A stretch of 20,000 nt of DNA from an uncultured virus (IMG/VR IMGVR_UViG_3300010262_000228). Lineage: Duplodnaviria > Heunggongvirae > Uroviricota > Caudoviricetes. Numbering within the stretch: the stretch's first letter is position 1; the number at the start of each line of letters is the position of its first letter. The position numbers and the translations under genes are program-made. Positions 628 through 17,697 of this stretch are shown here, in pieces. Location of the stretch: the IMG/VR virus record IMGVR_UViG_3300010262_000228. One strand, given 5' to 3'. The notes under the pieces were generated by a model that was not told the DNA's origin, did no database searches, and worked only from the letters and a program-made list of their open reading frames with translations.

Positions 628-933
628 TTAGTCTGGGCTTGTATGTGATTCGAGCAAATGAAGTGCATCTTCCCTTGCGCGGTCGTCTGCATTGCGAGCT
701 GCAACCACTAGGGCTCGTTCATAAGAGGACAGCGTTCCGTCCTCTACTTGCTCCTTGCCAACTAAATAATCAATAGTGACGCCAAACAAATCAGACAGTC
801 TGATGAGGACATCAATCGAAGGCTGTCTGGTTTCTCTCTCATATCTGCTGTACACCATAACACTACAGCCAATGGCATCTGCCACCTGCTGTTGTGTAAG
901 GCTACGTTTTGTGCGTAAGTCTTTCAAATTCAC
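628..933 (-). CDS. XRE/Cro-CI family HTH repressor (ImmR-like)
   Basis: LKDLRTKRSLTQQQVADAIG..YSRYERETRQPS..LSDLFGVTIDYLVG. Start moved to GTG 933, which has GGAGG 8 nt upstream. Confidence 0.9.
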   Translation of the reverse strand: MNLKDLRTKRSLTQQQVADAIGCSVMVYSRYERETRQPSIDVLIRLSDLFGVTIDYLVGKEQVEDGTLSSYERALVVAARNADDRAREDALHLLESHTSPD

Positions 934-967
934 GGCATACACCTCCCGTGTAACTGACTTGATTATA

Positions 968-1058: not shown

Positions 1059-1082
1059 TTATGTTGCGAGGAGGTGTTATCC

Positions 1083-2078
1083 GTGAACGAGGCTTTATGC
1101 GTGTACTATTCATCAGTCGAAAGCAAAAAAGTCGACTGGTTATGGTATCCGTATATTCCTTACGGAAAGCTAACCTTGCTGCAAGGTGATCCCGGCGAAG
1201 GAAAATCAACCTTCATTATCAATGTAGCCGCTCGATTAACTAATGGTGAGGCCATGCCAGGGACTTCGGATGCGGGTACCCCCCAAACGGTGATTTACCA
1301 ATGTGCGGAGGATAATGTCGCAGATACCATCAAACCTCGATTAGTTGCTGCGGGAGCTGACTGCTCCCGAATTGCATTTATTGCAGATGAAAGCGAACAG
1401 CTTACATTAGAAGATCAGCGCATCGAGCAGGCCATAAAGGAAACGAAAGCTCGACTGCTTATCATAGATCCATTACAGGCTTTTATGGCACAAGACGGTG
1501 ATATGCAAAATGCCGTTCGTGTGCGCACAGTCCTTCGCAAGCTGGCAAATGTGGCCGATAGAAATAATTGTGCCGTTGTTATGATTGGTCACATGAATAA
1601 AGGTGTCGGTGGAAAGAACCTGTATAGAAGTTTGGGGAGCATTGACATAGCAGCAATCTCAAGAAGCGTCCTTATGATTGCAAGGGATAATGCAGATCCA
1701 AATCTGCGGTATATGTTTCCGGTTAAAAGCAGTCTTGCCGCTGAAGGAAGCCCGATTGCCTTCCGTATGGATGAAAAACGTGGCTTTACATGGATTGGTA
1801 AATGTGCCATGGGAGATTCTGTCAAGAATGAGGATGCAAACATATCCAAATTGGATCTCGCGCGTAGCTTTATTGTCGATATCCTCGCAGATGGTCCCGC
1901 TCCCGCAAAAGACATTATTGGCGACTTAGCAAAATTGAGTATTGGTCAAAGAACCGTTGAGAGCGCTAAGAAAGCACTTGGCGTCAAGTCACATCGCATT
2001 GGTTCTGCGTGGTTCTGGTCTTTGGACGGGAACTATGAACAAAGAACGGGAGGTCATTCAGTATGCGATATCGAGTAG
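1083..2078 (+). CDS. AAA_25 / RepA-like (RecA-fold) ATPase, putative replication helicase
   Basis: WLWYPYIPYGKLTLLQGDPGEGKST (Walker A), LLIIDP (Walker B), GHMNK..GSIDI..SRS, and a C-terminal wHTH-like RTVESAKKALGV..W.W. GTG 1083 follows GGAGG. Confidence 0.85.
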   Translation: MNEALCVYYSSVESKKVDWLWYPYIPYGKLTLLQGDPGEGKSTFIINVAARLTNGEAMPGTSDAGTPQTVIYQCAEDNVADTIKPRLVAAGADCSRIAFIADESEQLTLEDQRIEQAIKETKARLLIIDPLQAFMAQDGDMQNAVRVRTVLRKLANVADRNNCAVVMIGHMNKGVGGKNLYRSLGSIDIAAISRSVLMIARDNADPNLRYMFPVKSSLAAEGSPIAFRMDEKRGFTWIGKCAMGDSVKNEDANISKLDLARSFIVDILADGPAPAKDIIGDLAKLSIGQRTVESAKKALGVKSHRIGSAWFWSLDGNYEQRTGGHSVCDIE

Positions 2079-2569
2079 CTGGATATGTAAAGTTGGCAAA
2101 GCTCTGGGAGCGTAGCCGAGATACTGCCATCCCGTATCACCATCAATACTACGAGAAGAAGTTTGAAGGACACCCTGATTTCGAGCTTGTGGATGTTTAT
2201 ATCGATATCACCGGACGGAAGGAAATCAAGAACCGGCCCGAAATGTTGCGCCTGATCAATGACTGCAGAGAAGGGAAAATCGACTGCATCGCAACACAGA
2301 CGAGAGCGTATCTTGCAGCCAACACCGGAGAGTTCTGCAGTTTGTTGCGGTACCTCTTTGACATGGCGAATCCTATTCACATCATCACCGAAGATGAGCA
2401 ATACAACATCAACACAATCGCGAACGATGACCATCAGAGAGAAGAACTCTATCGAATGGCAAGAAGTTTCACAGAGATAAATCCCGACGAATACCGAAAA
2501 TGGCTGGAGGATGTATTCCTCGGCATCGATAAATACGTACCGCAGGAGAGTGGAACCCATGGATACTGA
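2063..2569 (+). CDS. Resolvase-fold (serine recombinase N-domain) protein, apparently catalytically dead
   Basis: RVAGYVKLA, LVDVYID.TG...NRPEMLRLINDCREGKIDCI match the resolvase domain. The YxRxS nucleophile and D/SRxxR motifs are replaced by YVKLA and AYLAAN. Confidence 0.75.
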   Translation: MRYRVAGYVKLAKLWERSRDTAIPYHHQYYEKKFEGHPDFELVDVYIDITGRKEIKNRPEMLRLINDCREGKIDCIATQTRAYLAANTGEFCSLLRYLFDMANPIHIITEDEQYNINTIANDDHQREELYRMARSFTEINPDEYRKWLEDVFLGIDKYVPQESGTHGY

Positions 2570-4541
2570 TAAGCTCAAAGAAATGCCGGAAGCAACAGCA
2601 AGCGGTGAGGCAGAAGCTGTTGCCTCTGCCCCAGAAAAGCCTGTCAGCACATGGCGGCCACAGGATGCAGACCGTGAAATCATCAAGGCAAATATTCGCC
2701 GTAGAGTTTGGTCATCCAATGCGTCCCCAAAGGCACAATTCATCCCGGCCAAGCCTTTGCCCACCGTTCAGGATGAGGGGCAAAAGCGAGTGGCTGTGTA
2801 TGCCCGAGTCAGTACGAAGAGCACTGAACAGGTCTCATCGATTGAGAACCAGACTCGATACTATACCGAAAAGATTGAAAAGACCCCCAATTGGGATATG
2901 CAGGAAATCTATAGTGATGAGGGCATTTCCGGCGTCTCCATCAAAAAGCGTCCCGCATTCCTTCGCATGATCGATGATGCCAGCCATAAACGGATGGATC
3001 TTATTCTCTGTGCCAGTGTCTCGAGATTTGCTCGTAATATGTCCGAATGCTTGGAGCAGATCCAGATACTGAGGACGAAAAATCCCTCACATCCCGTCGG
3101 TGTTTACTTCGAAACCGAGAACATCTACACCCTCGACCCCAGAAGCTCCGACCAGCTCCAGATCCACGCAATGCTGGCTGACTGGGAATCCGCCAATAAG
3201 AGCAGACGCATGATTCTCTCCTATGACCAGAGAATCAGCACCGGACAGTATCCAGTTTCTGACTTGCTGGGGTATCGGCATACCGAAGACGGTCAGTTGA
3301 TCATCCAGGAGGATGAGGCGACTACAGTGCGCTTTATCTTCCTTGCCTACCTTGTAGGTTACTCTCTGGGCGAGATTGCCGATATCCTGACCGAAAAGGC
3401 AAGGCCGACCCTGAAGGGCAATACCGTATGGAATGCCGCCATGGTAAAGAACATCATGCAGAATGAGCGGCGTTGGGGACACCTCGAAGCGCGAAAGAGC
3501 ATCGTCATTGACCACAAGTCCAAGAAGGTGACCAAGAATAACAACACTCGTGACTCCGCCTACGATCCTGAACATCACGAGGGAATCGTCACCTACGAAA
3601 TCGCCAAGGCCGTACATATGGTAGCCGCAAGCGGCAGATCGTTAAAAGGTGGCATCCACGATTTGCACGTTATCGAAGAGGGTGCGCTGAAAGGATTTAT
3701 CTGCGTCTGCCCTGCATGGAGCGGTATGAACAGTCAGGCTCTGCAGGATATCTGTACAAGCGTATATTCCGATGATGAGTTCGAAGACCTGCAGTATAAA
3801 GCAAGTATCCTGCGTGGTGAAGCACATGGCAAAGTGGATTCTATGACTTTCTACAGCTATGAGGCACCTCCGGGCGTTTACTTCATGAACAGCAGGACAC
3901 CGTCTCTAACGCTTTCAAAGAAAAACATCAAACTCAATGCAGCTTGTAAAGCCCGTTTCACCAAGTACACCCATGTAGAAATCCTTTATCATCCTGTGCT
4001 TCAGGTAATTGCCCTGCGCGGCTGCGCGCCTGATGCTCCGAATGCAGTTCCTCTCGATGTTGATAAGGCGAATACTCCGATTCCAACCAATTCCTTCACC
4101 GAAGCTATCTTCGAAAAGATGGAATGGGTTCCTCGCTATCGTTTCCGTTTCCGTGGGATCGGTCGGGAGCGTGGCAACAGCCAAATCATGCTGTTCTTCC
4201 TTGACGATCCGCAGATCCTTCTCCCTAAAAAGGATCGGGAGCGCATAGAAGCAGAGAAAGAAGAATGTGAAAGCAATGCACGCTATATTCCCTATAAAGT
4301 GCAGGAAGAAGCTGTAGTGATGGAAGATAATCCCTTCCAAGTGGCCTATCCCGAAAAATGGGGTGGCCACCATATCGGAATTAGCTATGGCCTGTGTGAA
4401 CAAAGAAATTTGCTGCTCAATACCTTAACCGAACGCGATCTCCGTATCGAAGGCACTGCCGTACTGAATCCCCTGATTGGCATTTTGCCGGACCGACTTG
4501 AGGTTGAAGATGAAATCGAGCAGTTGCTTCTGAAAATGTAA
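2559..4541 (+). CDS. Large serine recombinase (resolvase + recombinase domains + atypical C-terminal domain)
   Basis: RVAVYARVST, YSDEGISG..KRPAFLRMI, SVSRFARN, ES.NKS, LLGY..EATTVRFIF, HEGIV. ATG 2559 follows AGGAGA. 660 aa. Confidence 0.93.
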   Translation: MDTDKLKEMPEATASGEAEAVASAPEKPVSTWRPQDADREIIKANIRRRVWSSNASPKAQFIPAKPLPTVQDEGQKRVAVYARVSTKSTEQVSSIENQTRYYTEKIEKTPNWDMQEIYSDEGISGVSIKKRPAFLRMIDDASHKRMDLILCASVSRFARNMSECLEQIQILRTKNPSHPVGVYFETENIYTLDPRSSDQLQIHAMLADWESANKSRRMILSYDQRISTGQYPVSDLLGYRHTEDGQLIIQEDEATTVRFIFLAYLVGYSLGEIADILTEKARPTLKGNTVWNAAMVKNIMQNERRWGHLEARKSIVIDHKSKKVTKNNNTRDSAYDPEHHEGIVTYEIAKAVHMVAASGRSLKGGIHDLHVIEEGALKGFICVCPAWSGMNSQALQDICTSVYSDDEFEDLQYKASILRGEAHGKVDSMTFYSYEAPPGVYFMNSRTPSLTLSKKNIKLNAACKARFTKYTHVEILYHPVLQVIALRGCAPDAPNAVPLDVDKANTPIPTNSFTEAIFEKMEWVPRYRFRFRGIGRERGNSQIMLFFLDDPQILLPKKDRERIEAEKEECESNARYIPYKVQEEAVVMEDNPFQVAYPEKWGGHHIGISYGLCEQRNLLLNTLTERDLRIEGTAVLNPLIGILPDRLEVEDEIEQLLLKM

Positions 4542-6429: not shown

Positions 6430-6465
6430 GGCCTCTCACCTGCCTTCCTTATCGGGGTCACAGAA

Positions 6466-6494
6466 AGTATATCACACGCCCCACCGAACGGCAA
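6466..6494 (-). promoter_or_regulatory. sigmaA promoter for the 5704-6429 gene
   Basis: Minus strand TTGCCG, 17 nt spacer, TATACT, with an extended -10 TG. Confidence 0.7.
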
Positions 6495-6518
6495 GACAAG
6501 CAAACTTCGCAACAGAAA

Positions 6519-6536
6519 GTGGTCGATTTCGACCAC
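6519..6536. repeat. Perfect inverted repeat GTGGTCGA-TT-TCGACCAC, candidate operator
   Basis: 8-bp arms just upstream of the phosphoesterase RBS. Confidence 0.55.
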
Positions 6537-6557
6537 CTTAAACCAGCAGGAGGAAAG

Positions 6558-7274
6558 ATGATTTACTATACAGGAGATATACATGGCTCCCATCATGAGC
6601 TAACCGCATTCTGCCGTGAATACAAGCTGACCGAGAAAGACACGGTCGTTCTTCTCGGTGATGTGGGTGCCAATTACTATCAAGACAAGAGCGACAGGGA
6701 TCTGAAGCGGGCTTTGAACCGATTGAAGCCCACGATCCTCTGTATTCACGGAAACCACGAAATGCGCCCGGCCACGCTCCCTTCCTATCTGATGAAGGAG
6801 TGGAACGGCGGCATGGTTTGGTATGAGGAAAAGTATCCCAATCTGCTCTTCGCAAAAGACGGAGAAATCTTTACGCTGGAAGGACTTCGCCACTTTGTTA
6901 TCGGCGGTGCCTACAGCGTTGATAAGTATTACCGACTCAGTCGAAACTATGGCTGGTGGCCAGATGAGCAGCCGTCCGAGGAAATCAAAGCCTATGCGAC
7001 CAAGCAGCTTGCCATTCATAAAGTGGACATTATCCTGTCCCACACCTGCCCCTATAAGTATGAGCCGACCGAGGTGTTTCTTCCCTTCATTGACCAGAGC
7101 ACTGTGGATGACAGCACCGAGCGTTGGCTCGACAAGATCGAAGATGCCATTGATTATAAAGCGTGGTTCTGTGGACACTGGCATGTGGACAAGCGCATCG
7201 ACAAAATGCACTTTCTCTTCCACTCCTTTGAATCTTCGGAACAATTCATGAGGGACAGCAACGATGAACAGTAA
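6558..7274 (+). CDS. Calcineurin-like metallophosphoesterase (phage/ICE type)
   Basis: GDIHG, LGDVG, GNHE, GGAYSVDK, SHTCP, GHWH. AGGAGG RBS then ATG 6558. Confidence 0.92.
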   Translation: MIYYTGDIHGSHHELTAFCREYKLTEKDTVVLLGDVGANYYQDKSDRDLKRALNRLKPTILCIHGNHEMRPATLPSYLMKEWNGGMVWYEEKYPNLLFAKDGEIFTLEGLRHFVIGGAYSVDKYYRLSRNYGWWPDEQPSEEIKAYATKQLAIHKVDIILSHTCPYKYEPTEVFLPFIDQSTVDDSTERWLDKIEDAIDYKAWFCGHWHVDKRIDKMHFLFHSFESSEQFMRDSNDEQ

Positions 7275-7301
7275 GCGGTATGGCTGATGGAGGTACGGAA
7301 T

Positions 7302-7643
7302 ATGGGAAGCAACGATGCTTTGTTAAACGAAATCAAGGACACCATAAATGGTATCAGGGCACTTATGGACAGAGCCTATCAGCAATATTCCTCGTTGGTC
7401 GATGCTGTTATAAATGATGAAATTACAGACATCAACCAGATCGAACGGATCATGGACGGTCTGGTTGACCTTGGCGACGATGTGCGTTTCATCGAGATAT
7501 ATAGAAAGCTTTGCCGCCATGTCTATCATCGGTACCCGCAGTTGGTGGGTGAGCATGTAATGATGTTTCGGGCGCAGTTCGAGTCCAACGAAGATACCGC
7601 TCAGAGCGATATTGCAGGACCAAAAACCACTCTCGAAGAATGA
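7302..7643 (+). CDS. Conserved helical hypothetical protein (paralog 1)
   Basis: GGAGG RBS. IERIMDGLVDL..FIEIYRKLCRHVY..YP. Confidence 0.8.
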   Translation: MGSNDALLNEIKDTINGIRALMDRAYQQYSSLVDAVINDEITDINQIERIMDGLVDLGDDVRFIEIYRKLCRHVYHRYPQLVGEHVMMFRAQFESNEDTAQSDIAGPKTTLEE

Positions 7644-7714
7644 CCTGCACGCAAAGAGAAAAAGCAATGTCCAGATAATTGGACGCAAGAAATTGTAAGC
7701 TGATGAAGGTGGAA

Positions 7715-8233
7715 ATGATGCAAAGCAATACTGGATATGAACAGATGCTCGAAGTCTTGAATGCGACAAAAATGCAGTCCCAAAAGCTCAAGGATGATAA
7801 CTACAACGATTACTGTCTACTGCTTCGTGCGGTAGAAAAGGGTCGTGTCACAAATGAAACTGAGCTCCGCAGCATTATGGATGGCTTCCTGGGCCACTTT
7901 GAGGAGGAACGCTTCCTCGAACTGTATGAACAGTTGTGTAAGTGCTGTTATGAAAAACACCCAGAACTTATAACGGAGCATGTAAAGCTGTTTCAGGCAC
8001 ACATTGAATGGATGGACAACTCTGCCAAAAAACATAGATTCCCCTTGGCAGAATCAGACTCCCGGCCTGTACCTGAACTGACCGGCGAAAAGTTCGAAAT
8101 GCTGACTATGGCATTAACACGCAGCATCCACAAGGATGATCCTTGGATGTTGGATAGGCTGAATGAAATCGAGTCAGAACTGAACCGCCGGAGAAGTGAA
8201 AATCTGGCTGATCGAAACGAGCCAGATGCATGA
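7715..8233 (+). CDS. Hypothetical protein, paralog 2 with C-terminal extension
   Basis: LRSIMDGFLGH..FLELYEQLCKCCY..HP..EHV aligns with the previous ORF. Confidence 0.75.
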   Translation: MMQSNTGYEQMLEVLNATKMQSQKLKDDNYNDYCLLLRAVEKGRVTNETELRSIMDGFLGHFEEERFLELYEQLCKCCYEKHPELITEHVKLFQAHIEWMDNSAKKHRFPLAESDSRPVPELTGEKFEMLTMALTRSIHKDDPWMLDRLNEIESELNRRRSENLADRNEPDA

Positions 8234-8243
8234 GGTAACGCAA

Positions 8244-8714
8244 ATGTCCGCTACATATAACTCATATACCGTGGAGGCTATGCATAATGGGCAGTGGTTT
8301 AATATCGACCACTGGTATCGCAATGCCGATGGACAAATGAAACATCAGTATCCGCTTGTCTTTTCGGAGCGGAACCTTATCTGCGAGACTTATGAAAATC
8401 TGCTGCGGTTTCGCCGCCGGATGGAGTTCGATGAACTTGCGCCAACAACACAGGAAATCATCTGTATTGGACACCCCGCTTTTTCTCGTGAATCGCTTGC
8501 ACAATGGGATTACTTCCTTTGGGGAGATTTTGGGGACTTAGAGGCCATGCTGGAATTGGAGCCTGACCCCAGTGAATATCTCACAAAAGAACGCTTCCAT
8601 GAGTTTGTTGCGGAGGTTCGAAAGCTGCGCTATGAGTTTTGGCGCACGATTCCATACAGTCCGGATAGACCCTCAGTTGAGAATTGCCCAATCCGAATAA
8701 TTATCTGCCAGTAA
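8244..8714 (+). CDS. Hypothetical protein
   Basis: GAGGT RBS then ATG 8244. Fits the operon tiling. Confidence 0.65.
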   Translation: MSATYNSYTVEAMHNGQWFNIDHWYRNADGQMKHQYPLVFSERNLICETYENLLRFRRRMEFDELAPTTQEIICIGHPAFSRESLAQWDYFLWGDFGDLEAMLELEPDPSEYLTKERFHEFVAEVRKLRYEFWRTIPYSPDRPSVENCPIRIIICQ

Positions 8715-8787
8715 AGCAAAGTTCTAATAGCTTTTTAGCGTAAGTTGTGGTATTTGTTCGTGTTACCAAAGAAGGAGGTGGACCACC

Positions 8788-9564
8788 ATGATTTATGTTA
8801 TGTCCGATATCCACGGACAGAAACGTCGATTTGATTCTGTCATGGAGCAGATCAACCTGCAACCTGAAGATACCCTTTACATCCTCGGCGATGTTATCGA
8901 CCGAAATCCCGATGGCATCAGAATCTTACGCCAGATCATGGCGATGCCCAATGCAAAAATGGTCTTGGGAAATCATGAATATATGATGCTGAACGCGCTA
9001 TACTACCCCGCACCCGGAGATGACCCAGAGTGGATGGAATACTATCGAGAGCGCAAGTTGTCGCTCTGGTATAACAACGGTGGTCTTGTAACACACAGGT
9101 ATTTGAAGCGAATCCCCAAAATAGTCCGGCAGGAAATCTTCGAATACTTGGATAAGCTGCCCGTCAATATCGACCTGACAGTAAATGACAGACAGTACAT
9201 CTTGACCCACGCAGCTCCCGTTGAGCTGTACCGTCGCTTCGGTCACAAATATAGGGACGAAAGAGAGTTCGCCGTCTGGCGCCGCTTTGATACCTTCATG
9301 GAACTGGAGGGCAAGACTGTGGTGTTTGGTCATACACCAACCTACAATTATAACTTTGAAAGCCCCATGGAAGTCTGGAATGCCGGAAGCTGGATTGGGA
9401 TCGACTGTGGTTGTATTTATCCCGAGGAAGGAGATCTCTGGAGTGGAGCCAATGGCCGTCTGGCCTGCTTACGGTTGGATGACATGATGGTCTTCTACTC
9501 TGAAGAAAACTATCCCGAGGAGGATAATGAAGATGAACAAGAAGCTGAAAGCACCTCAAGTTGA
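8788..9564 (+). CDS. PPP-family Ser/Thr phosphatase-like metallophosphoesterase
   Basis: SDIHG, GDVIDR, GNHE, W..NGG, THA, FGHT, IDCGC. AAGGAGGT RBS. Confidence 0.92.
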   Translation: MIYVMSDIHGQKRRFDSVMEQINLQPEDTLYILGDVIDRNPDGIRILRQIMAMPNAKMVLGNHEYMMLNALYYPAPGDDPEWMEYYRERKLSLWYNNGGLVTHRYLKRIPKIVRQEIFEYLDKLPVNIDLTVNDRQYILTHAAPVELYRRFGHKYRDEREFAVWRRFDTFMELEGKTVVFGHTPTYNYNFESPMEVWNAGSWIGIDCGCIYPEEGDLWSGANGRLACLRLDDMMVFYSEENYPEEDNEDEQEAESTSS

Positions 9565-10786
9565 TCGTTATCTTTGGTGGCTTGGACAAATGGATTACCA
9601 GAAATATGACCATGCCTCCAAATATGATGCAAGATCCTACGAGCTTCTGGACGAACTGTTCGAACTGCTCAAGAATATAAAGACTCTTGAAGGGTCTAGT
9701 GCCTGGAAATTCTGGATTCGTGCAGAACGTGGCACCATTGAAGACTACGGCGACTATGAAGAGATGTTCGATTGTGGTGAGGTCGAAAACCACGAAGATT
9801 ATCTAAACCGATGGAAAACCGAGTATCCCGATGAAACTGAGTGGTATGAGTTTCAGGCCCTCGATGAGAAGACCATCGGGTACAAAGCCATCTTTGTACG
9901 TCACAAGTTTGTTATTGAGTTGGATTCCAGAAAACCAATGGTCGGCTATGAGTATGATATCTCCGAGTTTTCGCAATGGCTTGTAGATGCAGTAAAAGAG
10001 GTCATATCGGAGCTAAAAGAGGGTACCTACAACGAGCGGTTGTCGCGTGAGCTTCCTGATGAACAGCGAACGGGGACAGTTCTGCGGAAATACCAATGGG
10101 AAGTCAGGCCGAAAATCAGGGAGGAAATCTTCGGGGATCTTTCTGAGGCCGACCTTGCTGAATTCCTATCCAATGCAGAAGAAAAACTGTCCGACAACTC
10201 TCGGCTGCTCACTCAGATGACGGCCAATGACTTCTATCGGTACTGCGCTATGGGGTATGCAGCAAACGGATACGATTGCTGCGACAAACCGCCCAAGGAA
10301 CAATACCTCAAGCACGCTGATGGGCGAGATGATGGGCTTCGGAACATAGATCCTGACTCGCCGGAAGCCTTTTCTGACTGGTACCACAATCATATTGGTG
10401 GTGGACATCCGTGGGAGGTCTGTCGCGGCGGAAACTCAACGCACGTATCTCTCTATGTACACCCAAAAGACAATGGTTGGTACCTTTCCCTTGCAGGCTC
10501 TGCATGGACCAGATGCCAGGAAACAATGAAATTCTTCCTTGCGCTACATCGTGCAGGTCTACCAGTGACCGTGTATGAAGCACCTGTGCTGAAGGCCAGG
10601 GTGTTGGGTGAAGAAAAGGTCGGAATCGTCCCTCTGGGTGTCTTTCCGGCGTATTGCCACAGCTACTTCCCCGGCGAAACAGTAATCGACTTTATGAATC
10701 TGCCCGGCGATGAAGATGACAGGAACCGGCTGGTGGAGCATTGCATCTGGCAGCCCCTAGAATATGCAGAGTTAAGCGAGGGATGA
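9533..10786 (+). CDS. Conserved hypothetical protein (417 aa) with HADGRDDGL and GGHPWEV.RGGNSTH motifs
   Basis: Long ORF overlapping the phosphatase stop, with a GGAGG RBS. Confidence 0.8.
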   Translation: MNKKLKAPQVDRYLWWLGQMDYQKYDHASKYDARSYELLDELFELLKNIKTLEGSSAWKFWIRAERGTIEDYGDYEEMFDCGEVENHEDYLNRWKTEYPDETEWYEFQALDEKTIGYKAIFVRHKFVIELDSRKPMVGYEYDISEFSQWLVDAVKEVISELKEGTYNERLSRELPDEQRTGTVLRKYQWEVRPKIREEIFGDLSEADLAEFLSNAEEKLSDNSRLLTQMTANDFYRYCAMGYAANGYDCCDKPPKEQYLKHADGRDDGLRNIDPDSPEAFSDWYHNHIGGGHPWEVCRGGNSTHVSLYVHPKDNGWYLSLAGSAWTRCQETMKFFLALHRAGLPVTVYEAPVLKARVLGEEKVGIVPLGVFPAYCHSYFPGETVIDFMNLPGDEDDRNRLVEHCIWQPLEYAELSEG

Positions 10787-10788
10787 AG

Positions 10789-11037
10789 ATGGTCATTTCC
10801 TACAACAAGCTCTGGAAGCTCCTGATTGATAAGAAAATGAGCAAAGCAGATTTAAGAAAAGCAGCGGGATTGGCTCCCAATACGATGACTCGTCTGCGAA
10901 GGGATCAGGAGGTCACCATTTCGGTGATATACAAAATCTGCACAGCAGTTGGTGCAGACATTGGAGATGTCATGGAATTTCTGCCCGAACCAGAGGAGAC
11001 CCGTGACACTATGATTTCGGCGGCAAATAAAATTTAA
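10789..11037 (+). CDS. Cro/C1-type HTH (HTH_26) regulator
   Basis: ISYNKLWKLLIDKKMSK.DL..V....KIC....IGDVME. Confidence 0.9.
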   Translation: MVISYNKLWKLLIDKKMSKADLRKAAGLAPNTMTRLRRDQEVTISVIYKICTAVGADIGDVMEFLPEPEETRDTMISAANKI

Positions 11038-11106
11038 TATACCTGTAGAGTAGAAAATGGAGTTCAATGCTATATGGGGAGAGCCTTGATTTGACAAAGT
11101 ATCTGT

Positions 11107-11189
11107 CTGTTGCCGCGCAGACCAAGGGGCGTGATAACAGCGATGGCGAGGGACATTTTTCCCTCGCCATTCACGGGAAGGGTGAGGGA
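11107..11189 (+). promoter_or_regulatory. Structured leader with mutually exclusive hairpins over the RBS
   Basis: 11-bp perfect stem at 11143-11170. Its 3' arm can instead pair with the RBS GAAGGGTGAGGGA. A further stem lies at 11107-11140. Confidence 0.45.
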
Positions 11190-11867
11190 ATGAAAATCAT
11201 AGATTATGAGCTCAAGGGTAATGTGGTGCGCTTTTACTTGGGAAAAGCAACGGCAAAAGATTACCACGGAGATGATTGGGACGATCCACTTACCGAAATT
11301 AATGGCAACCTTGTCTATAGCGAATATATCACCGGAACTGCCGAAATTGCGTTCCCATTCGATGCTCTTGTTTTGGACCCATGCGCCGGAGAGCGCAGCT
11401 ACAATTGCACATATTCCAAAAATGACATGAAAAACAGAACTGTTCCCTGCGTGATTGTAATTCCACCGGAGATTGCGAAAAACAGCAGCAGGGACAATTT
11501 TACATACTGGGCTGGGTACAAGGATGCCCTTCGCTTCTATTTTGAAGATCCTATGGAACCCTCACCATTACTTATAAGCTATAGCTTTGAACCCCTGCAG
11601 AAAGGGTTTGTTCAGCAGCACGATGTGTACCAAGCGCTGGCTGGATCGCAATCTGCACAGGAGGGCAATTCGGCGAGGCCGGTGCCTCTGTGGGAAAAGG
11701 AAAACCTCACAATAGAAGAAGCGGCTTCCCTCTTTGGTGTAGGTCAGAACAGAATCCGTGCGCTGACAGACAAGCGCAACTGCGATTTCGTTCTATTCGT
11801 TGGAAATCGACGCCTGATCAAGAGAAAGAAATTTGCCAAGTATTTGGAAACTGCCTTCTCAATCTGA
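11190..11867 (+). CDS. Phage-like hypothetical domain fused to a C-terminal Tn916-type excisionase
   Basis: N-terminal KGNVVRFYLG..GDDWDD. C-terminal VPLWEKENLTIEEAASLFGVGQNRIR..VLFVGNRRLIKRKKF is the Tn916-Xis pattern. Confidence 0.8.
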   Translation: MKIIDYELKGNVVRFYLGKATAKDYHGDDWDDPLTEINGNLVYSEYITGTAEIAFPFDALVLDPCAGERSYNCTYSKNDMKNRTVPCVIVIPPEIAKNSSRDNFTYWAGYKDALRFYFEDPMEPSPLLISYSFEPLQKGFVQQHDVYQALAGSQSAQEGNSARPVPLWEKENLTIEEAASLFGVGQNRIRALTDKRNCDFVLFVGNRRLIKRKKFAKYLETAFSI

Positions 11868-11883
11868 TATGGAGGGATCTTCA

Positions 11884-12129
11884 ATGCTGGATTACTCGAC
11901 ACTGCCCTCGGTTACAGAGGATGAATTCGTAAAAGACCCCGAAACCTATTTTGAAAGAGTTCACCAAGGGGAAAGCCCCCTTTTGATTATCAACAACGAT
12001 GGCCGAAAGTACCTCCTGTTTGATTGGGAAGATTATTGGAAACGCTTCGGTATGCTTTACCCTGACGGAGAGAAAGAGCGGGTCGAAGAAGCCTGCAGAA
12101 AGGCGGCACTTAATGCTCCCCAAGAGTAA
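11884..12129 (+). CDS. Phd/YefM-like antitoxin (orphan)
   Basis: VTEDEFVKDPETYFERVHQGESPLLI..G..YLL..EDY resembles the Phd N-terminal fold. GGAGG RBS. Confidence 0.55.
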   Translation: MLDYSTLPSVTEDEFVKDPETYFERVHQGESPLLIINNDGRKYLLFDWEDYWKRFGMLYPDGEKERVEEACRKAALNAPQE

Positions 12130-12283
12130 GTTTGACATAGAGCTTCCCCAGTCTATCGTCGATTCCTACGCTAGACATCTGGTGTCCGAAATACGCAAGT
12201 ATTACGCCAAAGAAGAGAATCAGCAGGAGTTGGAAGAACACTTAGAAAAGGAAGAAAAGATAGATGATTCTATTTACCAGTGA
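12113..12283 (+). CDS. Small ICE-type hypothetical protein (56 aa)
   Basis: GAAAGG RBS then ATG 12113. ARHLVSEIRKYYAKEENQQELEE. Overlaps both neighbours. Confidence 0.6.
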   Translation: MLPKSKFDIELPQSIVDSYARHLVSEIRKYYAKEENQQELEEHLEKEEKIDDSIYQ

Positions 12284-13058
12284 CCTGCACCTTGGTCATA
12301 AGAATATCCTCAAACTGTGTAATCGTCCGTTTTCCTCAATTGAAGAAATGGATGCGACACTGATCGAGAACTGGAACAAGAAGGTGCATAAGAACGATCA
12401 GGTATATATCCTTGGGGATCTGATGTATCGAAATGAAAAGCCGCCCGAGGAATACCTGCGGCAGCTCAACGGCAAGAAGCACCTCATTACCGGAAATCAC
12501 GATAGAGCCTGGGTCAAGATGTGCGATACTTCTCAGTATTTTAAAAGTGTAAACAGACTGGACTACATTTCGGATAGGAAGCGTCAAATGACGCTGTGCC
12601 ACTTCCCAATGATGTCCTGGCCCCACATGCCCAGGAGCTACATGGTCTTTGGCCACATTCATGGCACTACCGATGCTGATTACTGGCTGCTCATCGCACG
12701 AAACGAAAAGATGCTCAATGCTGGTGTCGATATCAACGGCTATGCACCCGTCACTTTCGATGAGATGGTCGAAAACAACGCAAAACATAAAGCTGCATAT
12801 CTTGAGATGACCACTCAATACACCTTAGAAATGCGGCTTGAAGATATGCTCTGTGATTTGGAGCGTCGCATTGGACTGTTCGAGGAGGCTTGTGCGGCAG
12901 ATATGGCGAAGTGTAAGGAAGCAATTGCGGAGAAAGAATACGAAGGCTTCAAGAGTTACCTCTTGGGTTACCTTGCAAGCAATCAGGCCAGAGATGCGGA
13001 GCTGCAGTTGCTCCGCACGCAGTACGATGCCCTGCTTAGTCTAACCCAGAGCCATTGA
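12264..13058 (+). CDS. Calcineurin-like phosphoesterase (AQ1575-like) with C-terminal helical extension
   Basis: SDLHLGHKNI, RPF..EEMD..WN, LGD, GNHD, CHFP, GHIH, NAGVD. Confidence 0.9.
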   Translation: MILFTSDLHLGHKNILKLCNRPFSSIEEMDATLIENWNKKVHKNDQVYILGDLMYRNEKPPEEYLRQLNGKKHLITGNHDRAWVKMCDTSQYFKSVNRLDYISDRKRQMTLCHFPMMSWPHMPRSYMVFGHIHGTTDADYWLLIARNEKMLNAGVDINGYAPVTFDEMVENNAKHKAAYLEMTTQYTLEMRLEDMLCDLERRIGLFEEACAADMAKCKEAIAEKEYEGFKSYLLGYLASNQARDAELQLLRTQYDALLSLTQSH

Positions 13059-13116
13059 ATCCTCGGAAGTAACATACAAGAGAACCGGACCAAAAGACTG
13101 AAAGGGGCTTTGGACT

Positions 13117-13380
13117 ATGCGAAAACCACAGGAGATCAATGTGATCGTACATTACCCAGCCACGCTCTGTGGGATGGTATCCTTCGTAAAGCAGGTTGTG
13201 TATGCAAATCCAAATCTTCTTTATGACAGAATCAAGAAAAAGCGCATGCCCAAGGAAGAGAAAGGCATTCTTCTCATGATGGCTCGTGAAGAAGAAAGAA
13301 AGTATTCCCGTAATGATTTGCTGTTTTATCAATTGGCAGCGGCGCAAAACGACAAGGAGGATAAACTGCATGTTCCATAA
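13117..13380 (+). CDS. Small ICE-type hypothetical protein
   Basis: GAAAGGGG RBS. INVIVHYP N-terminus. Overlaps the next gene. Confidence 0.6.
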   Translation: MRKPQEINVIVHYPATLCGMVSFVKQVVYANPNLLYDRIKKKRMPKEEKGILLMMAREEERKYSRNDLLFYQLAAAQNDKEDKLHVP

Positions 13381-13834
13381 GCTCCAGGGCGTGTTCCCTA
13401 TGGAAGACTTTGTCCTTGGCTGCAAATTCAAAAACGGGGCTGTTAAGCTCTACGATATGAAACCGTTGATGCGTGATGACTCCGTTTTTTCCTATTTCAA
13501 AGAACATCCTGACATCTTCTATCAGGTAACTGTTAGCCCCGGTGGATACGGAATTATCTGGAATGACGATCTTGACCTCGCGGCAGAGGAAGTCTGGGTG
13601 AACGGCTGGCCGGAATGGGATGAAAACAATCTCGTAACCTTCGAAGTTGAAATTGATGCTGAACTGCTTAGACAGGCGGCAGAACGATTGAAGTCCTTCA
13701 ATCTGTCCCCGGAAGACTGGATGGTCATGTGCTTGGAGGCACTCGTATATCCAGCAACAAGGGATAAGATGATGGAAATACTTCTGAGAGGGCAAGATGA
13801 GCACGCTGCCATGGAGCAAAAGGAGGAGCCATGA
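13370..13834 (+). CDS. DUF2442 domain fused to a RelB/DinJ-like ribbon-helix-helix
   Basis: MFHKL..V.PMEDF.L..F.NG..K.YD..GGYGIIWNDDLDL..EEVW.NG (DUF2442), then EVEIDAELLRQA..L..NLS (RelB-like). AAGGAGG RBS. Confidence 0.75.
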   Translation: MFHKLQGVFPMEDFVLGCKFKNGAVKLYDMKPLMRDDSVFSYFKEHPDIFYQVTVSPGGYGIIWNDDLDLAAEEVWVNGWPEWDENNLVTFEVEIDAELLRQAAERLKSFNLSPEDWMVMCLEALVYPATRDKMMEILLRGQDEHAAMEQKEEP

Positions 13835-14142
13835 TCACAAAAGAGCTCTTCTGTAAAGCCCTCCGAATGATCGTGGAGCAGGAGGAAATCAATCGTCAGT
13901 TTTCCGTTGCTCTACAAGCTGTTGGAAATGGCCACTATGTATTTGGCACACCCAATAAGTATTACGATGCCCTGTTGGAAGTATTGAAAGAGACTGTTGG
14001 CGACAAGTATGACTACATAAGTTGGTGGCTCTATGAAGGAGCTCCCGACTATGAAGTCTGGTCTGCTGACGAAGCGCAGAAGTGGGTACTCAAGGAGCCA
14101 GAAGCACTCTACGACTATATTCGGGACGAGTGCCAGGAATAG
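13831..14142 (+). CDS. Phage-like hypothetical protein
   Basis: ATGA overlap and AGGAGG RBS. MITKELF..DYISWWLYE..EALYDYI. Confidence 0.75.
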   Translation: MITKELFCKALRMIVEQEEINRQFSVALQAVGNGHYVFGTPNKYYDALLEVLKETVGDKYDYISWWLYEGAPDYEVWSADEAQKWVLKEPEALYDYIRDECQE

Positions 14143-14163
14143 CGGACGAAAGGACTATAATCG

Positions 14164-14733
14164 ATGAAGAAAATTCCTACATTATTTCAGCGTGTATTCG
14201 ATAACCACCGAATTGTTGAGGTTTTGCCTGAAGTGCCATCCGAGCTTTCGTGGGTTTTGGCCGGTGAAGGAGTTGCCACGATTAAGTGGGACGGCTCCTG
14301 CTGTGCCATCATCGGTGGAGAATTTTATAAGCGGTATGATGCTAAGCACGGGAAGAAGGTCCCTGCGAATGCTATCCAATGCGAGGCAGCGGCAGACCCT
14401 GTGACTGGACACCTTCCATGCTGGGTTCCATGTAACAGGAATGACCCTGGTGATAAGTGGTTTTGGGATGCCTACGACCGCTCGGAGTCCCATTGCGATG
14501 GAACTTATGAGGCTATTGGACCGCACTTCCGTACTAATCCCCACGACCTTCCCGAGGACATCTTGAAGCCGCACGGCGAGGACATTATCGAAGTGGTTCG
14601 CTCTTTTGACGACATCAAGGCATACCTGACCGAACATTACATCGAAGGAATCGTTTTCTGGAAAGACGGGGAACCCAAGTGCAAAATCAAACGATCCGAC
14701 TTTGCCCTGCCTTGGGGCAAGAATGTGCGGTAG
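14164..14733 (+). CDS. ATP-dependent RNA ligase-like protein, RLIG1/C12orf29 (DUF5565) family
   Basis: Nucleotidyltransferase motif I ATIKWDGSCC (KxDG), RYDAK, GHLPCWVP, YEAIGP..NP, LKPHG, motif IV IEGIVF and motif V KIKR. Confidence 0.85.
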   Translation: MKKIPTLFQRVFDNHRIVEVLPEVPSELSWVLAGEGVATIKWDGSCCAIIGGEFYKRYDAKHGKKVPANAIQCEAAADPVTGHLPCWVPCNRNDPGDKWFWDAYDRSESHCDGTYEAIGPHFRTNPHDLPEDILKPHGEDIIEVVRSFDDIKAYLTEHYIEGIVFWKDGEPKCKIKRSDFALPWGKNVR

Positions 14734-14745
14734 GAGGACATCGCC

Positions 14746-14967
14746 ATGATTCAGTTTGCCATAAATGACGAACAAGAGATCAAGCTGCAGGAATGGAGAA
14801 AAAACCACGATTGCGCCATCAGAAAACCAGATGGGACAAGAATCGCCAGCACTTTTGGCGAAGCAGAAATTTTCCGCTTTATACCTACATCCGTTGGGAC
14901 GGTAATCACTACAGTACAGTGTGCTTGTGGCGCGGACCTGGACTTGACTGAATGGGAGTTTTTCTAA
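14746..14967 (+). CDS. Small phage-like hypothetical protein (His/Cys, possibly Zn-binding)
   Basis: AGGAGG RBS. HDC..FIPTSVG..CACG..LDLT.W. Confidence 0.75.
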   Translation: MIQFAINDEQEIKLQEWRKNHDCAIRKPDGTRIASTFGEAEIFRFIPTSVGTVITTVQCACGADLDLTEWEFF

Positions 14968-14987
14968 GCTGAAAGAGGCGGAAAAAT

Positions 14988-15242
14988 ATGATGTTTCCCT
15001 TGGTGACTCTGGAGGATCAAACTGAAATTGTCCATTCCCACTTGCTCGAGGATGGACGGATAAAGGTGTATGTCGAAACACCGGTTGAGAATGGATTCCA
15101 TAACGCAGAGCTCTATATACCTGAATACATGTGGAAGCAAGTTGATGGTTATGATTCTGATGAATTGGACAAGTTTCTGCAAATCATCATGACAGAAAAA
15201 GACAAAATAATCCTCCGTGCAAAAGGCACGGGCAACACATAA
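14988..15242 (+). CDS. Conserved Firmicute hypothetical protein (family recalled as lying next to DUF4160 genes)
   Basis: MMFP..TL.D.TEIVHS...DGRIKVYVETP..GFH.A...P.Y.W....GY. Confidence 0.7.
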   Translation: MMFPLVTLEDQTEIVHSHLLEDGRIKVYVETPVENGFHNAELYIPEYMWKQVDGYDSDELDKFLQIIMTEKDKIILRAKGTGNT

Positions 15243-15305
15243 CGCGAAAAAATCCCAATAGCCAAAGGCATGACGATCCATCTTCTTTTGACAAGGAGCG
15301 TGAAG

Positions 15306-15791
15306 ATGACCACTCAGGATAAAAACCGCAAACTAATTGAGCGCTTTCCGTTCCTTTTACCGCATAATCGATGGACGGATGAGGTGCCAGAGGACTATGA
15401 CTACTCTTACACAGAGCTAGATGCCATGCCACACGGGTGGCGTATAGCTTTTGGCGAAGAACTGTGTGAGGAGATTCGAGAAGAACTCGTTCAGGCTGAT
15501 TATTTAGACAAGTACCGTATTGCAGAAATCAAGGAAAAATATGGTGCGCTATGTTGGTATGATTTCGGCTGTACTGAGAAGATGGACCGAGAGATTATTC
15601 CGAAGTACGCTGAGAAGTCTGCCACCACCTGCATTCGCTGTGGCAAACCAGCCACAAGGATAACTACTGGGTGGATCAGTCCCTACTGTGACAACTGTCT
15701 CCCCCATTACAACGGGACCCCAGGGCGAAGCATTTCCGTTGAAGAGTTTTTGGGGAAATCAGATTCTGATAAAAAAGGGGAGCGGCTTTAG
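15306..15791 (+). CDS. Phage-like protein with KEKxG motif and C-terminal Zn finger
   Basis: GWR..FG, EIKEKYGALCWY, CIRCGKP..GWI.PYCDNC. AAGGAG RBS. Confidence 0.8.
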   Translation: MTTQDKNRKLIERFPFLLPHNRWTDEVPEDYDYSYTELDAMPHGWRIAFGEELCEEIREELVQADYLDKYRIAEIKEKYGALCWYDFGCTEKMDREIIPKYAEKSATTCIRCGKPATRITTGWISPYCDNCLPHYNGTPGRSISVEEFLGKSDSDKKGERL

Positions 15792-15792
15792 A

Positions 15793-16269
15793 GTGAACGA
15801 TCAGACGATCAAACGAGTCAAAGAACTTCTCGCGACCTATCATGCTCGGGAGCGGCAGATATCCGTTCTACTCTATGAGTTGGATCATGCTCCGAGAGAA
15901 ACTCCGGCTGAGATTATCTCTGAATTGGCTTATGCCAAATCAACTGGTATGTGCGGTATGCCACGCCGGAAAAGCACAAACTACATCGCTGTGAATTACA
16001 AGGAACAGCTTAAGCAAGTCAATGAAGAGGTTATCTGCGAAATATCTATGGAACTGTACCCGCTCAAGCAGGAGCAAGAAAGACTCAACTACTATATGTC
16101 GCTCTTGGAGCAGCGCAAAGCAGATGTTCTTAAACAGATTTACATTGTCGGTGCGACAACAAGCCAAGTCGCCGAGCAGTATGGCCTAACTTATCGAACC
16201 ATTGACCGAATCAAAAAAGCTGCGATATCGTTCAACAACTGGATTCCAGTTCGAGGTCTTGACGGATGA
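15793..16269 (+). CDS. Sigma70 region-4 / ArpU-RinA-like transcription factor, C-terminus possibly chimeric
   Basis: GGGGAG RBS then GTG 15793. LEQRKADVLKQIY..G.T..QVAEQYGLTYRTI.RIKKAAI. Confidence 0.75.
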   Translation: MNDQTIKRVKELLATYHARERQISVLLYELDHAPRETPAEIISELAYAKSTGMCGMPRRKSTNYIAVNYKEQLKQVNEEVICEISMELYPLKQEQERLNYYMSLLEQRKADVLKQIYIVGATTSQVAEQYGLTYRTIDRIKKAAISFNNWIPVRGLDG

Positions 16270-16390
16270 TCCCGTCACCCGGAAAGCGATTGACGATCTC
16301 ATATATGATTTGTACGGTGAAGAAAACCAGCATACCTTAGAGGACTACAAAAGTGGACCCGAACAAGGAATGCAATTTGGTGGCATGTAA
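16227..16390 (+). pseudogene. 3' remnant of an ICE gene
   Basis: Frame ..FEVLTDDPVTRKAIDDLIYDLYGEEN..QGMQFGGM* looks protein-like but has no RBS or start, and overlaps the tail of the sigma-like gene. Confidence 0.5.
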
Positions 16391-16431
16391 ATCGCAAATA
16401 TGAATAACAGAAAGGTTGTGACCGAAGCGTT

Positions 16432-17289
16432 ATGGCTGATAGAAGAGCAAGAAATGCGGATATCTTCCGAGATACAGAAAAGCATTACAAGACAAACACT
16501 GTGCTGAAGCAAGCAATCCAAGCATCAATCAAAGCGCAGCGATTTATATCTATTAAAGATGCTGTTGGACAGCCCATCAAGACAGAATCCAAGAATGCAA
16601 AAGTTTTAGTAAGCGGCAAGCGTTCACTCGAAGCCGCCGAGTTCTATGCAAAACAAGGCAAAAAAGTATGTGTGCTGAACTTTGCTTCAGCTACAAACCC
16701 TGGTGGCGGTGTAGTCAACGGCTCATCTGCACAGGAAGAAAGCATCTGCCGCTGCACGACACTCTATCCCTGTCTAAACACAGAACCCATGTGGCAAGCC
16801 TTTTATTCACCACATAGAAAATCGGGAAATCCGCTCTATAACGATGATTGCATTTATACACCTGATGTTTATGTGTTCAAGAGTGATACAAATTTCCCCG
16901 AGCTGTTGCCTTGTGACGATTGGTGGAGTGTAAACATCTTGACTTGTGCGGCTCCCAACCTTCGTGATCGCCCAAGCAATGCAATGAATCCATTCGCTGG
17001 TAATACTGCCGCAAAGATAACTCCTGCCGAATTGAAGCAATTGCTGAATTCACGAATCAGGAGAATATTTGAACTTGCGGTAGCCAACGGAAATGAGGTG
17101 TTGATCCTTGGAGCATTCGGTTGTGGTGCATTTAGAAATCCTCCTAAAATTGTAGCGGAGGTATTTTACGATGTTATGCAAGAGTATCTTTGCTATTTTG
17201 ATGTAATCGAATATGCTGTTTACCACACCGAACGAGAAGCTGCCAACTACGAAGCCTTTAAGAACAGACTCGGATACTCTCAAAGGTAG
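16432..17289 (+). CDS. TIGR02452 (DUF2263 macrodomain) bacterial-type poly(ADP-ribose) glycohydrolase
   Basis: VLNFASATNPGGG-X6-QEESICR catalytic loop, IYTPDV, TCAAP, LILGAFGCGAFRNPP. Confidence 0.93.
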   Translation: MADRRARNADIFRDTEKHYKTNTVLKQAIQASIKAQRFISIKDAVGQPIKTESKNAKVLVSGKRSLEAAEFYAKQGKKVCVLNFASATNPGGGVVNGSSAQEESICRCTTLYPCLNTEPMWQAFYSPHRKSGNPLYNDDCIYTPDVYVFKSDTNFPELLPCDDWWSVNILTCAAPNLRDRPSNAMNPFAGNTAAKITPAELKQLLNSRIRRIFELAVANGNEVLILGAFGCGAFRNPPKIVAEVFYDVMQEYLCYFDVIEYAVYHTEREAANYEAFKNRLGYSQR

Positions 17290-17297
17290 GGGAACCA

Positions 17298-17645
17298 TTG
17301 CTGATGCAGATTGATGGAGTGAATGTGACATCCCTTTCAAATTGGGACGGGAAACCCATAAAGAACAAGCTCCCTGCAGAGCTGAAAACCAGAATGAAAA
17401 CGGAAAACCAATGGCTGGAGGCGGGATACCTTGTAAAAGCTGGAGCCACAGGTTACGAAATGCACTCTAATGTTATGGGAAAGCAACTCTTCACGTATTA
17501 CATAGATTCTGAAGTAGAGGAGATTACCGACAGCAATGCACCTAAGAACTGCATGACCTGCGGCATTCGCACCGGAAGATTCTGCGTTTTCGCCGGTGAT
17601 TATGTAAGTGCAAAGACCTGTTGTTCAGAATGGATATTTGACTAA
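17298..17645 (+). CDS. Hypothetical protein with Cys-rich C-terminus
   Basis: AGGGG RBS. KTENQWLEAGY; CMTC..C..CC..W. Start is TTG 17298 or ATG 17304. Confidence 0.65.
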   Translation: MLMQIDGVNVTSLSNWDGKPIKNKLPAELKTRMKTENQWLEAGYLVKAGATGYEMHSNVMGKQLFTYYIDSEVEEITDSNAPKNCMTCGIRTGRFCVFAGDYVSAKTCCSEWIFD

Positions 17646-17697
17646 GCGCAGGGATTCTCATGATCGGGAAAACCTGAACTCACGAGACTCCCTGCGC
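17646..17697. repeat. Long imperfect inverted repeat between convergent genes
   Basis: GCGCAGGGATTCTCATGA..TCACGAGACTCCCTGCGC (16/18 arm match) plus an inner TCGGG/CCTGA stem. Confidence 0.65.

Follow-up and report, generated by a model that had tools for sequence, protein, structure and literature searches.

We analysed a 20,000-nucleotide stretch of DNA, hereafter the window, from an uncultured virus of the Caudoviricetes (IMG/VR record IMGVR_UViG_3300010262_000228). A block in this window carries genes for an RNA ligase, three phosphoesterases (MPE1, MPE2 and MPE3) and a PARG. A preliminary description of the DNA had read the block as mobile-element cargo that reverses three toxin chemistries of host defence, namely RNA cleavage, phosphorylation and ADP-ribosylation. 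We found that gut Clostridia harbour a family of serine-recombinase elements whose shuffled cargo includes this block, and that the neighbours of its genes elsewhere favour one theme, RNA-end repair, over three separate chemistries.

Five intact enzyme genes

The enzymes are encoded by the following genes.

6558..7274, plus strand: MPE1, calcineurin-like phosphoesterase that mostly heads the cargo run (PF00149, phrog_1649, structural model)
8788..9564, plus strand: MPE2, PPP/lambda-phosphatase (NinI)-like phosphoesterase (phrog_246, E 4e-42)
12264..13058, plus strand: MPE3, AQ_1665-like calcineurin-like phosphoesterase with ~80 extra C-terminal residues (phrog_547, E 2e-50; PDB 1XM7, E 5e-8)
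14164..14733, plus strand: RLIG1/C12orf29 (DUF5565)-family ATP-dependent RNA ligase, a minimal nucleotidyltransferase domain (PHROG, PDB, relatives)
16432..17289, plus strand: bacterial-type PARG (TIGR02452/DUF2263; family model and motif)

All five open reading frames (ORFs) lack internal stop codons, their catalytic motifs are complete by motif scan, and they span 10.7 kb with about 16 other ORFs interleaved. That the genes lie at these starts, co-oriented and intact, had been claimed in the preliminary description and was borne out by ORF, family and motif checks. The assembly is real, since an independent sequencing run (X1) reproduces the window: six long contigs, each with 0-3 differences, tile positions 1-19999 and leave a single gap of 59 bp. 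The nearest whole genome (G001) has only positions 1-4119 in common with the window. Contigs cannot show transcription; three RNA-labelled runs covered the whole window evenly, the pattern expected from DNA carry-over, and a promoter scan of the window gave no excess (14 versus 18.4 in shuffles). PADLOC returned no curated anti-phage defence system among 23 proteins, only three marginal matches (E 8e-4 to 6e-3).

By its PDB, PHROG and family relatives, the predicted ligase is an RLIG1 homologue. It matches the RNA ligases of phrog_14301 (E 1.5e-55) and the structure of Yasminevirus RLIG1 (PDB 9C6L, E 6.7e-14), on which K41 of its K41-W-D-G motif falls on K73, the residue changed in 9C6M. Two further motif residues, E116 and E161, align with 9C6L glutamates, and K174/K176 complete the set; K41 and E116 are invariant across the 59 rows of the ligase alignment. 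The window ligase itself has no Pfam match at E<=0.01 and misses the PF17720 (RLIG1) model, which is matched by 44 of its 59 aligned relatives; a relative in the related locus L166 scores 43 bits on it against a cut-off of 25. In the ligase phylogeny, a quick tree only, the nearest ligases come from Oscillospiraceae genomes, and the cassette ligases need at least two and up to four origins, the cassette label showing no significant clustering (59 of 500 shuffles as low).

Other RLIG1-type ligases are fused to a RelB-like domain (P0043, P0053, P0066 and P0025), C-terminally in three (PF04221) and N-terminally in one (by eye). An RLIG1-type ligase lies 64-500 bp directly upstream of RtcB in L046, L047, L125 and L128, so that ligases of opposite end requirements stand side by side; a terminase gene adjoins in the phage loci. 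In L016, a DncV-like nucleotidyltransferase with an AGS-C domain (CBASS-like, 1296-2690) is found ~1 kb upstream of an adjacent ligase-MPE1 pair, and L014 1162-2466 belongs to the same family.

The PARG scores 179.6 bits on TIGR02452 (cut-off 50), retains the GGG-x6-QEE motif (NPGGG at 89, AQEE at 100) and matches PDB 5ZDA-5ZDG and 3SIG at ~1e-28. The three phosphoesterases each score above the curated PF00149 cut-off, belong to PHROGs 1649, 246 and 547, respectively, and contain all five metal-binding motifs by motif scan. For MPE1 these residues are D7/H9, D35, N66-H67, H162 and H207/H209. It has no close solved relative, its closest PDB match by sequence reaching only E 0.013, and its fold was compared using a model with pLDDT 92. 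Dbr1 and the CWF19L1 spliceosome chain fill the first nine Foldseek rows and also rank highest in a second fold search (Z 15.2-15.6, rmsd 3.5-4.2 over 195-209 residues, 13-19% identity); aq_1956 ties with them (Z 15.2) and MPPED2 follows within about 1 Z. Dbr1 has a cysteine in motif I, where MPE1 has D7, which is invariant in 21 rows.

The motifs of MPE2 (DIHG, GDVIDR and GNHE) are of the PPP type. Its best PDB match is 1G5B (E 1e-10), followed by ApaH and 4J6O; from the entry code we take 1G5B to be phage lambda phosphatase, in agreement with the NinI-like PHROG. MPE2 is also weakly related to the phosphatase domain of Pnkp (TIGR04075, E 5e-5; 4J6O). The PPP motifs and the lambda match of the predicted enzyme do not separate a protein from an RNA substrate. 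Since lambda phosphatase hydrolyses 2',3'-cyclic phosphates (PMC2190708), MPE2 need not be a protein phosphatase.

Shuffled cargo of a recombinase element family

Viral contigs anchored on MPE1 gave 79 loci, 78 of which were analysed and fell into 29 groups at 80% identity. Their maps show a constant mobility/regulatory module followed by a cargo run usually headed by MPE1, and cargo content and order change between nearly all elements. The recombinase occurs in 21 groups, MPE3 in 13, MPE2 in 11, a conserved 417-aa protein in eight, the ligase in three and PARG in one. L207 has the window's own module layout without the ligase, L166 carries all five enzymes in another order at 52-69% identity (ligase 58%, PARG 69%), and L037, L052 and L061, which form one group, carry MPE1-3 and the ligase; a Macro domain is present in L061 and L063. 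These recombinase-module neighbourhoods bear out the earlier view of the block as mobile-element cargo. The conserved core is the three phosphoesterases together with orphan antitoxin-like and unnamed genes, while the ligase and PARG are optional.

The ligase-anchored set comprised 160 loci in 67 groups, taken from 220 genome matches and 370 viral matches, the best 80 of each; the cassette occurs in 32 of the viral loci, which form one redundant group and were counted once. A phosphoesterase lies within 3 kb of the ligase in eight of the 67 groups, in four of them, at unrelated loci, within 70 bp, and RtcB in three. The majority of ligases are solitary, often inside phage gene runs. PARG is present in none of the 160 loci (0/67 groups). 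Thirteen metagenome loci were anchored on PARG, one of them spurious: L251 and the near-identical pair L252/L253 belong to the cargo family, which also has PARG in L166, in three others PARG comes after type I restriction-like genes (by eye), and the remaining six are <3 kb long. A viral PARG scan found nothing. A fixed five-gene system was rejected on the absence of PARG from the ligase loci and the empty viral scan. The genes do co-occur across elements, as the preliminary description had expected, but in differing orders and not as a fixed kit (ligase in 3/29 and PARG in 1/29 MPE1 groups), and the neighbourhood check it had proposed, of DUF5565 with Metallophos and DUF2263, gave a nearby phosphoesterase in eight of the 67 ligase groups and PARG in none.

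Such turnover raises the alternative that the cargo site gathers small, individually useful stress genes and that the five enzymes form no pathway. The differing content and order of almost all elements, the mostly solitary ligases, often in phage regions, and the interleaved ORFs are consistent with it, as is the mosaic nature of the window, which has a probable recombination junction near 16220 (L251 matches only from there) and a 2-kb segment (17265-19225) that L251 lacks. This would leave unexplained why the same families are kept across elements at 30-75% identity, why phosphoesterases sit <=70 bp from a ligase in four unrelated loci and <=320 bp from RtcB in three, and why they meet a ligase as rare as this one, found in 2/401 genomes of the G001 family. 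We consider this explanation unlikely; if it held, the block would still represent an undescribed cargo family of gut Clostridia.

The remaining genes of the window, from the mobility module onward, are listed below.

628..942, minus strand: Cro/CI-type helix-turn-helix (HTH) repressor, divergent from the main run (PF01381, E 4e-17)
1074..2078, plus strand: AAA_25 (RepA-like) ATPase/helicase of the mobility module (PF13481, E 1e-26; same place in L207 and L014)
2063..2569, plus strand: resolvase-like domain without the catalytic serine (Y-x-R-x-S; PF00239, E 1e-5; motif scan)
2562..4541, plus strand: large serine recombinase bearing a YARVS motif, by which the element family is recognised (PF00239 and PF07508; phrog_95, E 9e-71)
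4552-5259 and 5270-5650, plus strand: two conserved module genes without family match, the first present in 19/29 MPE1 groups
5704-6429, minus strand: ORF between module and cargo (weak primase-related PHROG match, E 2e-10)
7302-7643 and ~7715-8233, plus strand: two mutually related genes of no family, whose domain recurs in the cargo
8244..8714, plus strand: recurrent cargo gene (3/29 MPE1 groups)
9533..10786, plus strand: conserved 417-aa cargo protein (1240 homologues; model pLDDT 93.7; 8/29 MPE1 groups)
10789-11037, plus strand: HTH_26 regulator (family match)
11067-11867, plus strand: ORF joining an unnamed domain to a Tn916-type excisionase (family match for the excisionase)
11884..12129, plus strand: small recurrent gene, Phd/YefM-antitoxin-like by eye only, no adjacent toxin (4/29 MPE1 groups)
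13370..13834, plus strand: DUF2442 with RelB/DinJ-like C-terminal domain, no adjacent toxin (PF10387)
13831..14142, plus strand: recurrent small cargo gene (phrog_28377; 7/29 MPE1 groups)
15306..15791, plus strand: cargo gene with a zinc-ribbon-like product (two CxxC); the sister element group has it immediately upstream of the ligase
15793..16269, plus strand: sigma-70 region-4 type regulator, ending at the probable junction (family match)
17265-19225: segment with two minus-strand pRiA4b ORF3-like ORFs

Related elements likewise have an HTH gene facing the opposite way. In most of them the recombinase module ends in DUF6551 (ParB-like) and a second ParB-like gene (by eye; L164 3275-4138, L190 3953-4912), in place of which the subtype in the window has the AAA_25 gene. 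Stand-alone resolvase-like domains recur in module and cargo (window 2063-2569, L166 17206-17847, L037 10552-12043, L203 11819-12352) and could be directionality factors or recombinase decoys. The opposite-strand ORF at 5704-6429 has no relative in the 238 loci searched and is probably a recent insertion. Two runs have one extra T after 18069, and the break between the pRiA4b ORF3-like ORFs may differ between strains.

Within the cargo, the domain shared by the genes at 7302-7643 and ~7715-8233 stands N-terminal to the Macro domain in L061 (by eye). Neither the 7302 gene nor the 417-aa protein has a family named in the Atlas. The 417-aa protein gave no structural match (best Z 4.0, best E 0.01) in a whole-chain search, which could miss a single-domain match; an active site is suggested by two stretches that hardly vary, HADGRDDGL and GHPWEVCRGGNSTH. 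In the excisionase ORF, the N-terminal domain (window 11190-11580) corresponds to a separate gene in the unrelated L249 (9146-9544, 48% identity), where it overlaps the stop of an RLIG1-type ligase. The Phd/YefM label of the 11884 gene was not confirmed (hhalign probability only 19%, no PDB match). Relatives of the 13370 product match PF04221, and its family profile matches DinJ/RelB structures weakly (E 0.005-0.006), ranked below unrelated repeat proteins.

Three unnamed families of ~210, 200 and 200-290 aa, represented by L165 11297-11950, L167 10705-11316 and L061 6113-7358, occur in 13, 8 and 2 of the 29 MPE1 groups, respectively, which places them among MPE1's commonest partners in the cargo, and are absent from the window. 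They have no Pfam or PHROG match, and PHROGs name none of the commonest unnamed cargo families. Complete toxin-antitoxin pairs (ParE-like, AbiEii-like, HipBA) are found at the cargo head or flank in L166 9059-9734, L037 2548-4162 and L171 1348-3014.

RNA-repair neighbourhoods and a proposed mechanism

The 401 genomes of G001's family contain the MPE1 family in 62, TIGR02452 in 56 and RtcB in 110; one of the two ligase genomes may duplicate a ligase-anchored locus and was not counted separately. Among the 20 MPE1 loci with the highest scores, six contain an RNA-repair gene no more than 3 kb away (three with RtcB, two with RlaP, one with cREC; the assignments in L328 and L336 rest on tblastn, that in L336 also on the RtcB search of the 401 genomes), and the module genes of the element are in none of the 20. 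RtcB beside MPE1 was observed three times versus 0.016 expected, with a phosphoesterase <=320 bp from RtcB in three loci, and eight PARG genes from six genomes have an MPE1-family gene within 11 kb versus 0.09 expected, both under uniform placement. A second set of 20 genome regions was excluded from these frequencies because six were chosen for PARG proximity. PARG-MPE1 clusters also hold RtcB (L337), a T4 Rnl1-type ligase (L344), an Rnl2-type ligase (L347), Thg1 with RlaP (L349) or cREC with an R2K ATP-grasp protein (L332), and phage MPE1 genes are often near Thg1 or RlaP. Three larger islands, L332 (G148:C15), L337 (G398:C9) and L349 (G392:C71), combine three or four phosphoesterases and PARG with RtcB, Thg1, RlaP, cREC or R2K ATP-grasp genes; one genome has three such clusters.

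The main argument for RNA repair as the theme is that four unrelated ligase types adjoin the same phosphoesterase families. We give roughly even chances to the proposal that the block is the cargo run of a gut-Clostridia serine-recombinase element whose enzymes were drawn from an RNA-repair gene pool. The counter-toxin role proposed in the preliminary description is plausible, but the neighbours favour this shared theme over its three toxin chemistries.

A number of observations weigh against this proposal. The ligase is in only 3/21 recombinase-bearing MPE1 groups; 59/67 ligase groups have no phosphoesterase within 10 kb, and of the 42 groups whose flanks reach >=3 kb on each side, 36 lack one within that distance. 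In the window, the nearest phosphoesterase is 1.1 kb from the ligase, and PARG lies past the junction near 16220. No repair gene was found near 14/20 top MPE1 loci, and the expected counts above, which assume uniform gene placement, overstate significance as accessory genes cluster. The enzymes also come without a kinase: GxxxxGK[ST] (Walker A) is in 0 of 345 cargo ORFs, no kinase family is among 93 cargo representatives, and Pnkp (TIGR04075) has no match in five cassette-bearing genomes. The Walker A and family scans uphold the earlier caveat that the window has no polynucleotide kinase. AAA_33 proteins are present in 3/5 cassette genomes, their linkage being judged only from the listed places, and Hen1 has no Pfam or NCBIfam match among window or cargo proteins. 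Finally, since RtcB needs a 3'-phosphate (PMC7824862), it would be counter-productive to have a plain 3'-phosphatase next to it.

The same neighbourhoods bear on a broader counter-toxin kit, in which the ligase would act on RNA, MPE2 would dephosphorylate the protein targets of HipA/Stk2-type kinases, and PARG would strip protein or DNA of ADP-ribose. MPE2, with its PPP motifs, is closest to the lambda Ser/Thr phosphatase. A HipA kinase (PF07804) flanks the element in 10/44 clustered loci, and in L353 a distance of 548 bp separates one from an MPE1-family gene, but these HipA genes have their own HipB-like HTH gene and many come from one redundant element group. The recurrent orphan RelB-like genes and RelB-ligase fusions, and the three close PARG relatives beside type I restriction-like genes (by eye), also speak for separate targets. 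MPE2 and PARG, on the other hand, cluster with RtcB, Thg1 and RlaP as well (L337, L349). DarT marks are removed by DarG/TARG1-type macrodomains and are not known to be removed by those of the PARG type. The arm that sets a protein phosphatase against HipA appears weaker than had been stated, its only basis being the PPP-family motifs and the HipBA pairs that border some related elements. Separate targets seem to us a rather doubtful explanation.

A further possibility is that small molecules or DNA are the substrates of the phosphoesterases and PARG, which would destroy nucleotide or ADP-ribose immune signals or nick host DNA as reported for mycobacteriophage Gp48. The MPE1 fold is within about 1 Z of the phosphodiesterases MPPED2 and Rv0805, and MPE2 resembles ApaH. 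A phage metallophosphoesterase disrupts host DNA and silences defence genes (PMC12287305), and a phage Macro enzyme turns ADPR-1P into ADPR (10.64898/2026.01.28.702374). We nonetheless hold this to be very unlikely, since the 93 cargo representatives include no NAD-rebuilding genes, Nudix or sirtuin and the genes that keep recurring nearby encode RNA ligases and RNA nucleotidyltransferases.

RNA-end repair could proceed as follows. The mechanism builds on direct observations (gene identity, intact motifs, shuffled co-occurrence and the exchange of ligase types in other clusters), and all of its steps are predicted from homology and context. Defence effectors that cut tRNA are common. Damage to tRNA or other RNA by toxins or defence nucleases would be the trigger; the phosphoesterases would strip phosphate, cyclic phosphate or 2'-linked blocks from the RNA ends, PARG would strip ADP-ribose from 2'-OH groups or capped 5'-phosphates, and the RLIG1-type ligase would seal 5'-phosphate to 3'-OH. 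Translation would be protected for element and host, and the orphan RelB-like genes may contribute direct toxin binding. RLIG1 joins 5'-phosphate to 3'-OH and not 2',3'-cyclic-phosphate/5'-OH ends (PMC11071452, PMC11494293), and PrrC leaves 5'-OH (PMC11494293). Since RLIG1 needs a 5'-phosphate and no kinase is present, the block alone should not mend PrrC/RloC-type breaks. It would be suited to breaks that already bear a 5'-phosphate, such as those of two-metal nucleases like AriB or uncapped ends, or would borrow a host kinase. AriB leaves 5'-phosphate/3'-OH ends (10.1101/2025.02.04.636281), which makes its break a direct ligase substrate; the accessible part of PMC13056530 contains nothing on end chemistry. 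Because bacterial PARGs take ADP-ribose off RNA, both at 2'-OH groups and at 5'-phosphate ends, and give protection from a toxin that modifies RNA (PMC11833690), PARG could in turn supply ligatable 5'-phosphates.

Since MPE1 also flanks RtcB, with its need for a 3'-phosphate, we infer that it acts on a 2'-linked block and not on a 3'-phosphate. A more specific, and improbable, version of the mechanism is that MPE1 is a mobile-element-borne bacterial Dbr1-like 2'-phosphodiesterase, which together with PARG and the RLIG1 ligase would form a kinase-free route that clears 2' blocks (2'-5' links, 2'-phosphate, 2'-ADP-ribose) and reseals the 5'-phosphate breaks of two-metal nucleases such as PARIS AriB. 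If true, this would explain MPE1 beside both RtcB and ATP-dependent ligases, and would provide a native pathway for bacterial RLIG1 and a prokaryotic relative of lariat debranching.

Comparison with known systems

Literature searches returned no paper that places RLIG1 together with phosphoesterases or PARG on a mobile element; supplements were outside their scope, and Burroughs and Aravind 2016 may already record the arrangement. In the accessible part of the RLIG1 preprint the words 'operon' and 'neighbor' occur 0 times and there is no gene-neighbourhood analysis. A counter-immunity role was predicted for viral RLIG1 members by their authors (PMC11494293). The literature searched describes no partners for bacterial RLIG1 members, and the element supplies candidates in its three phosphoesterases and PARG. 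That one ligase type replaces another next to the same phosphoesterases gives a functional lead for two phosphoesterase families, phrog_1649 and the AQ_1665-like one.

Like RLIG1/C12orf29 (PF17720), the window ligase is homologous to Yasminevirus RLIG1 and conserves the adenylated lysine, but its length is 189 aa versus 277. MPE1 resembles the Dbr1/CWF19L1 lariat-debranching family in its top structural matches and differs from Dbr1 in D7, in its low identity and in the tie with aq_1956. As in T4 Pnk-Rnl1 and bacterial Pnkp(-Hen1), an ATP-dependent 5'-phosphate/3'-OH ligase is combined with end-healing phosphoesterases, in the window by predicted role. Unlike those systems, the window has no kinase, Hen1 or Pnkp fusion, and its ligase family lacks the RNA-binding domain of Rnl1 (PMC11494293). 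Kinase-free repair matched to 5'-phosphate breaks would be a form of counter-defence unlike T4 Pnk-Rnl1.

The Deinococcus radiodurans genes DRB0098-DRB0100, with DRB0099 in a ligase operon, were proposed to be a nucleic-acid repair cluster (PMC11833690). There too, a ligase and a bacterial-type PARG share one cluster with an end-processing phosphatase. In that cluster an HD domain joined to an active polynucleotide kinase serves as the phosphatase, whereas the window has three calcineurin-like enzymes and lacks a kinase, its ligase is of the RLIG1 family and its setting is a mobile element. Previously described RNA-repair neighbourhoods include RtcB/Rnl, RlaP, Thg1, cREC, Macro and occasional calcineurin-like domains (PMC7824862, PMC9503650), and the window's phosphoesterase and PARG families join the same genes in other genomes; the neighbourhoods in the accessible parts of these two papers do not include a recombinase element that combines RLIG1 as ligase with a core of three phosphoesterases. 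By homology and gene context, the block is probably a variant of known RNA-repair/counter-toxin clusters, a loose kit with precedents.

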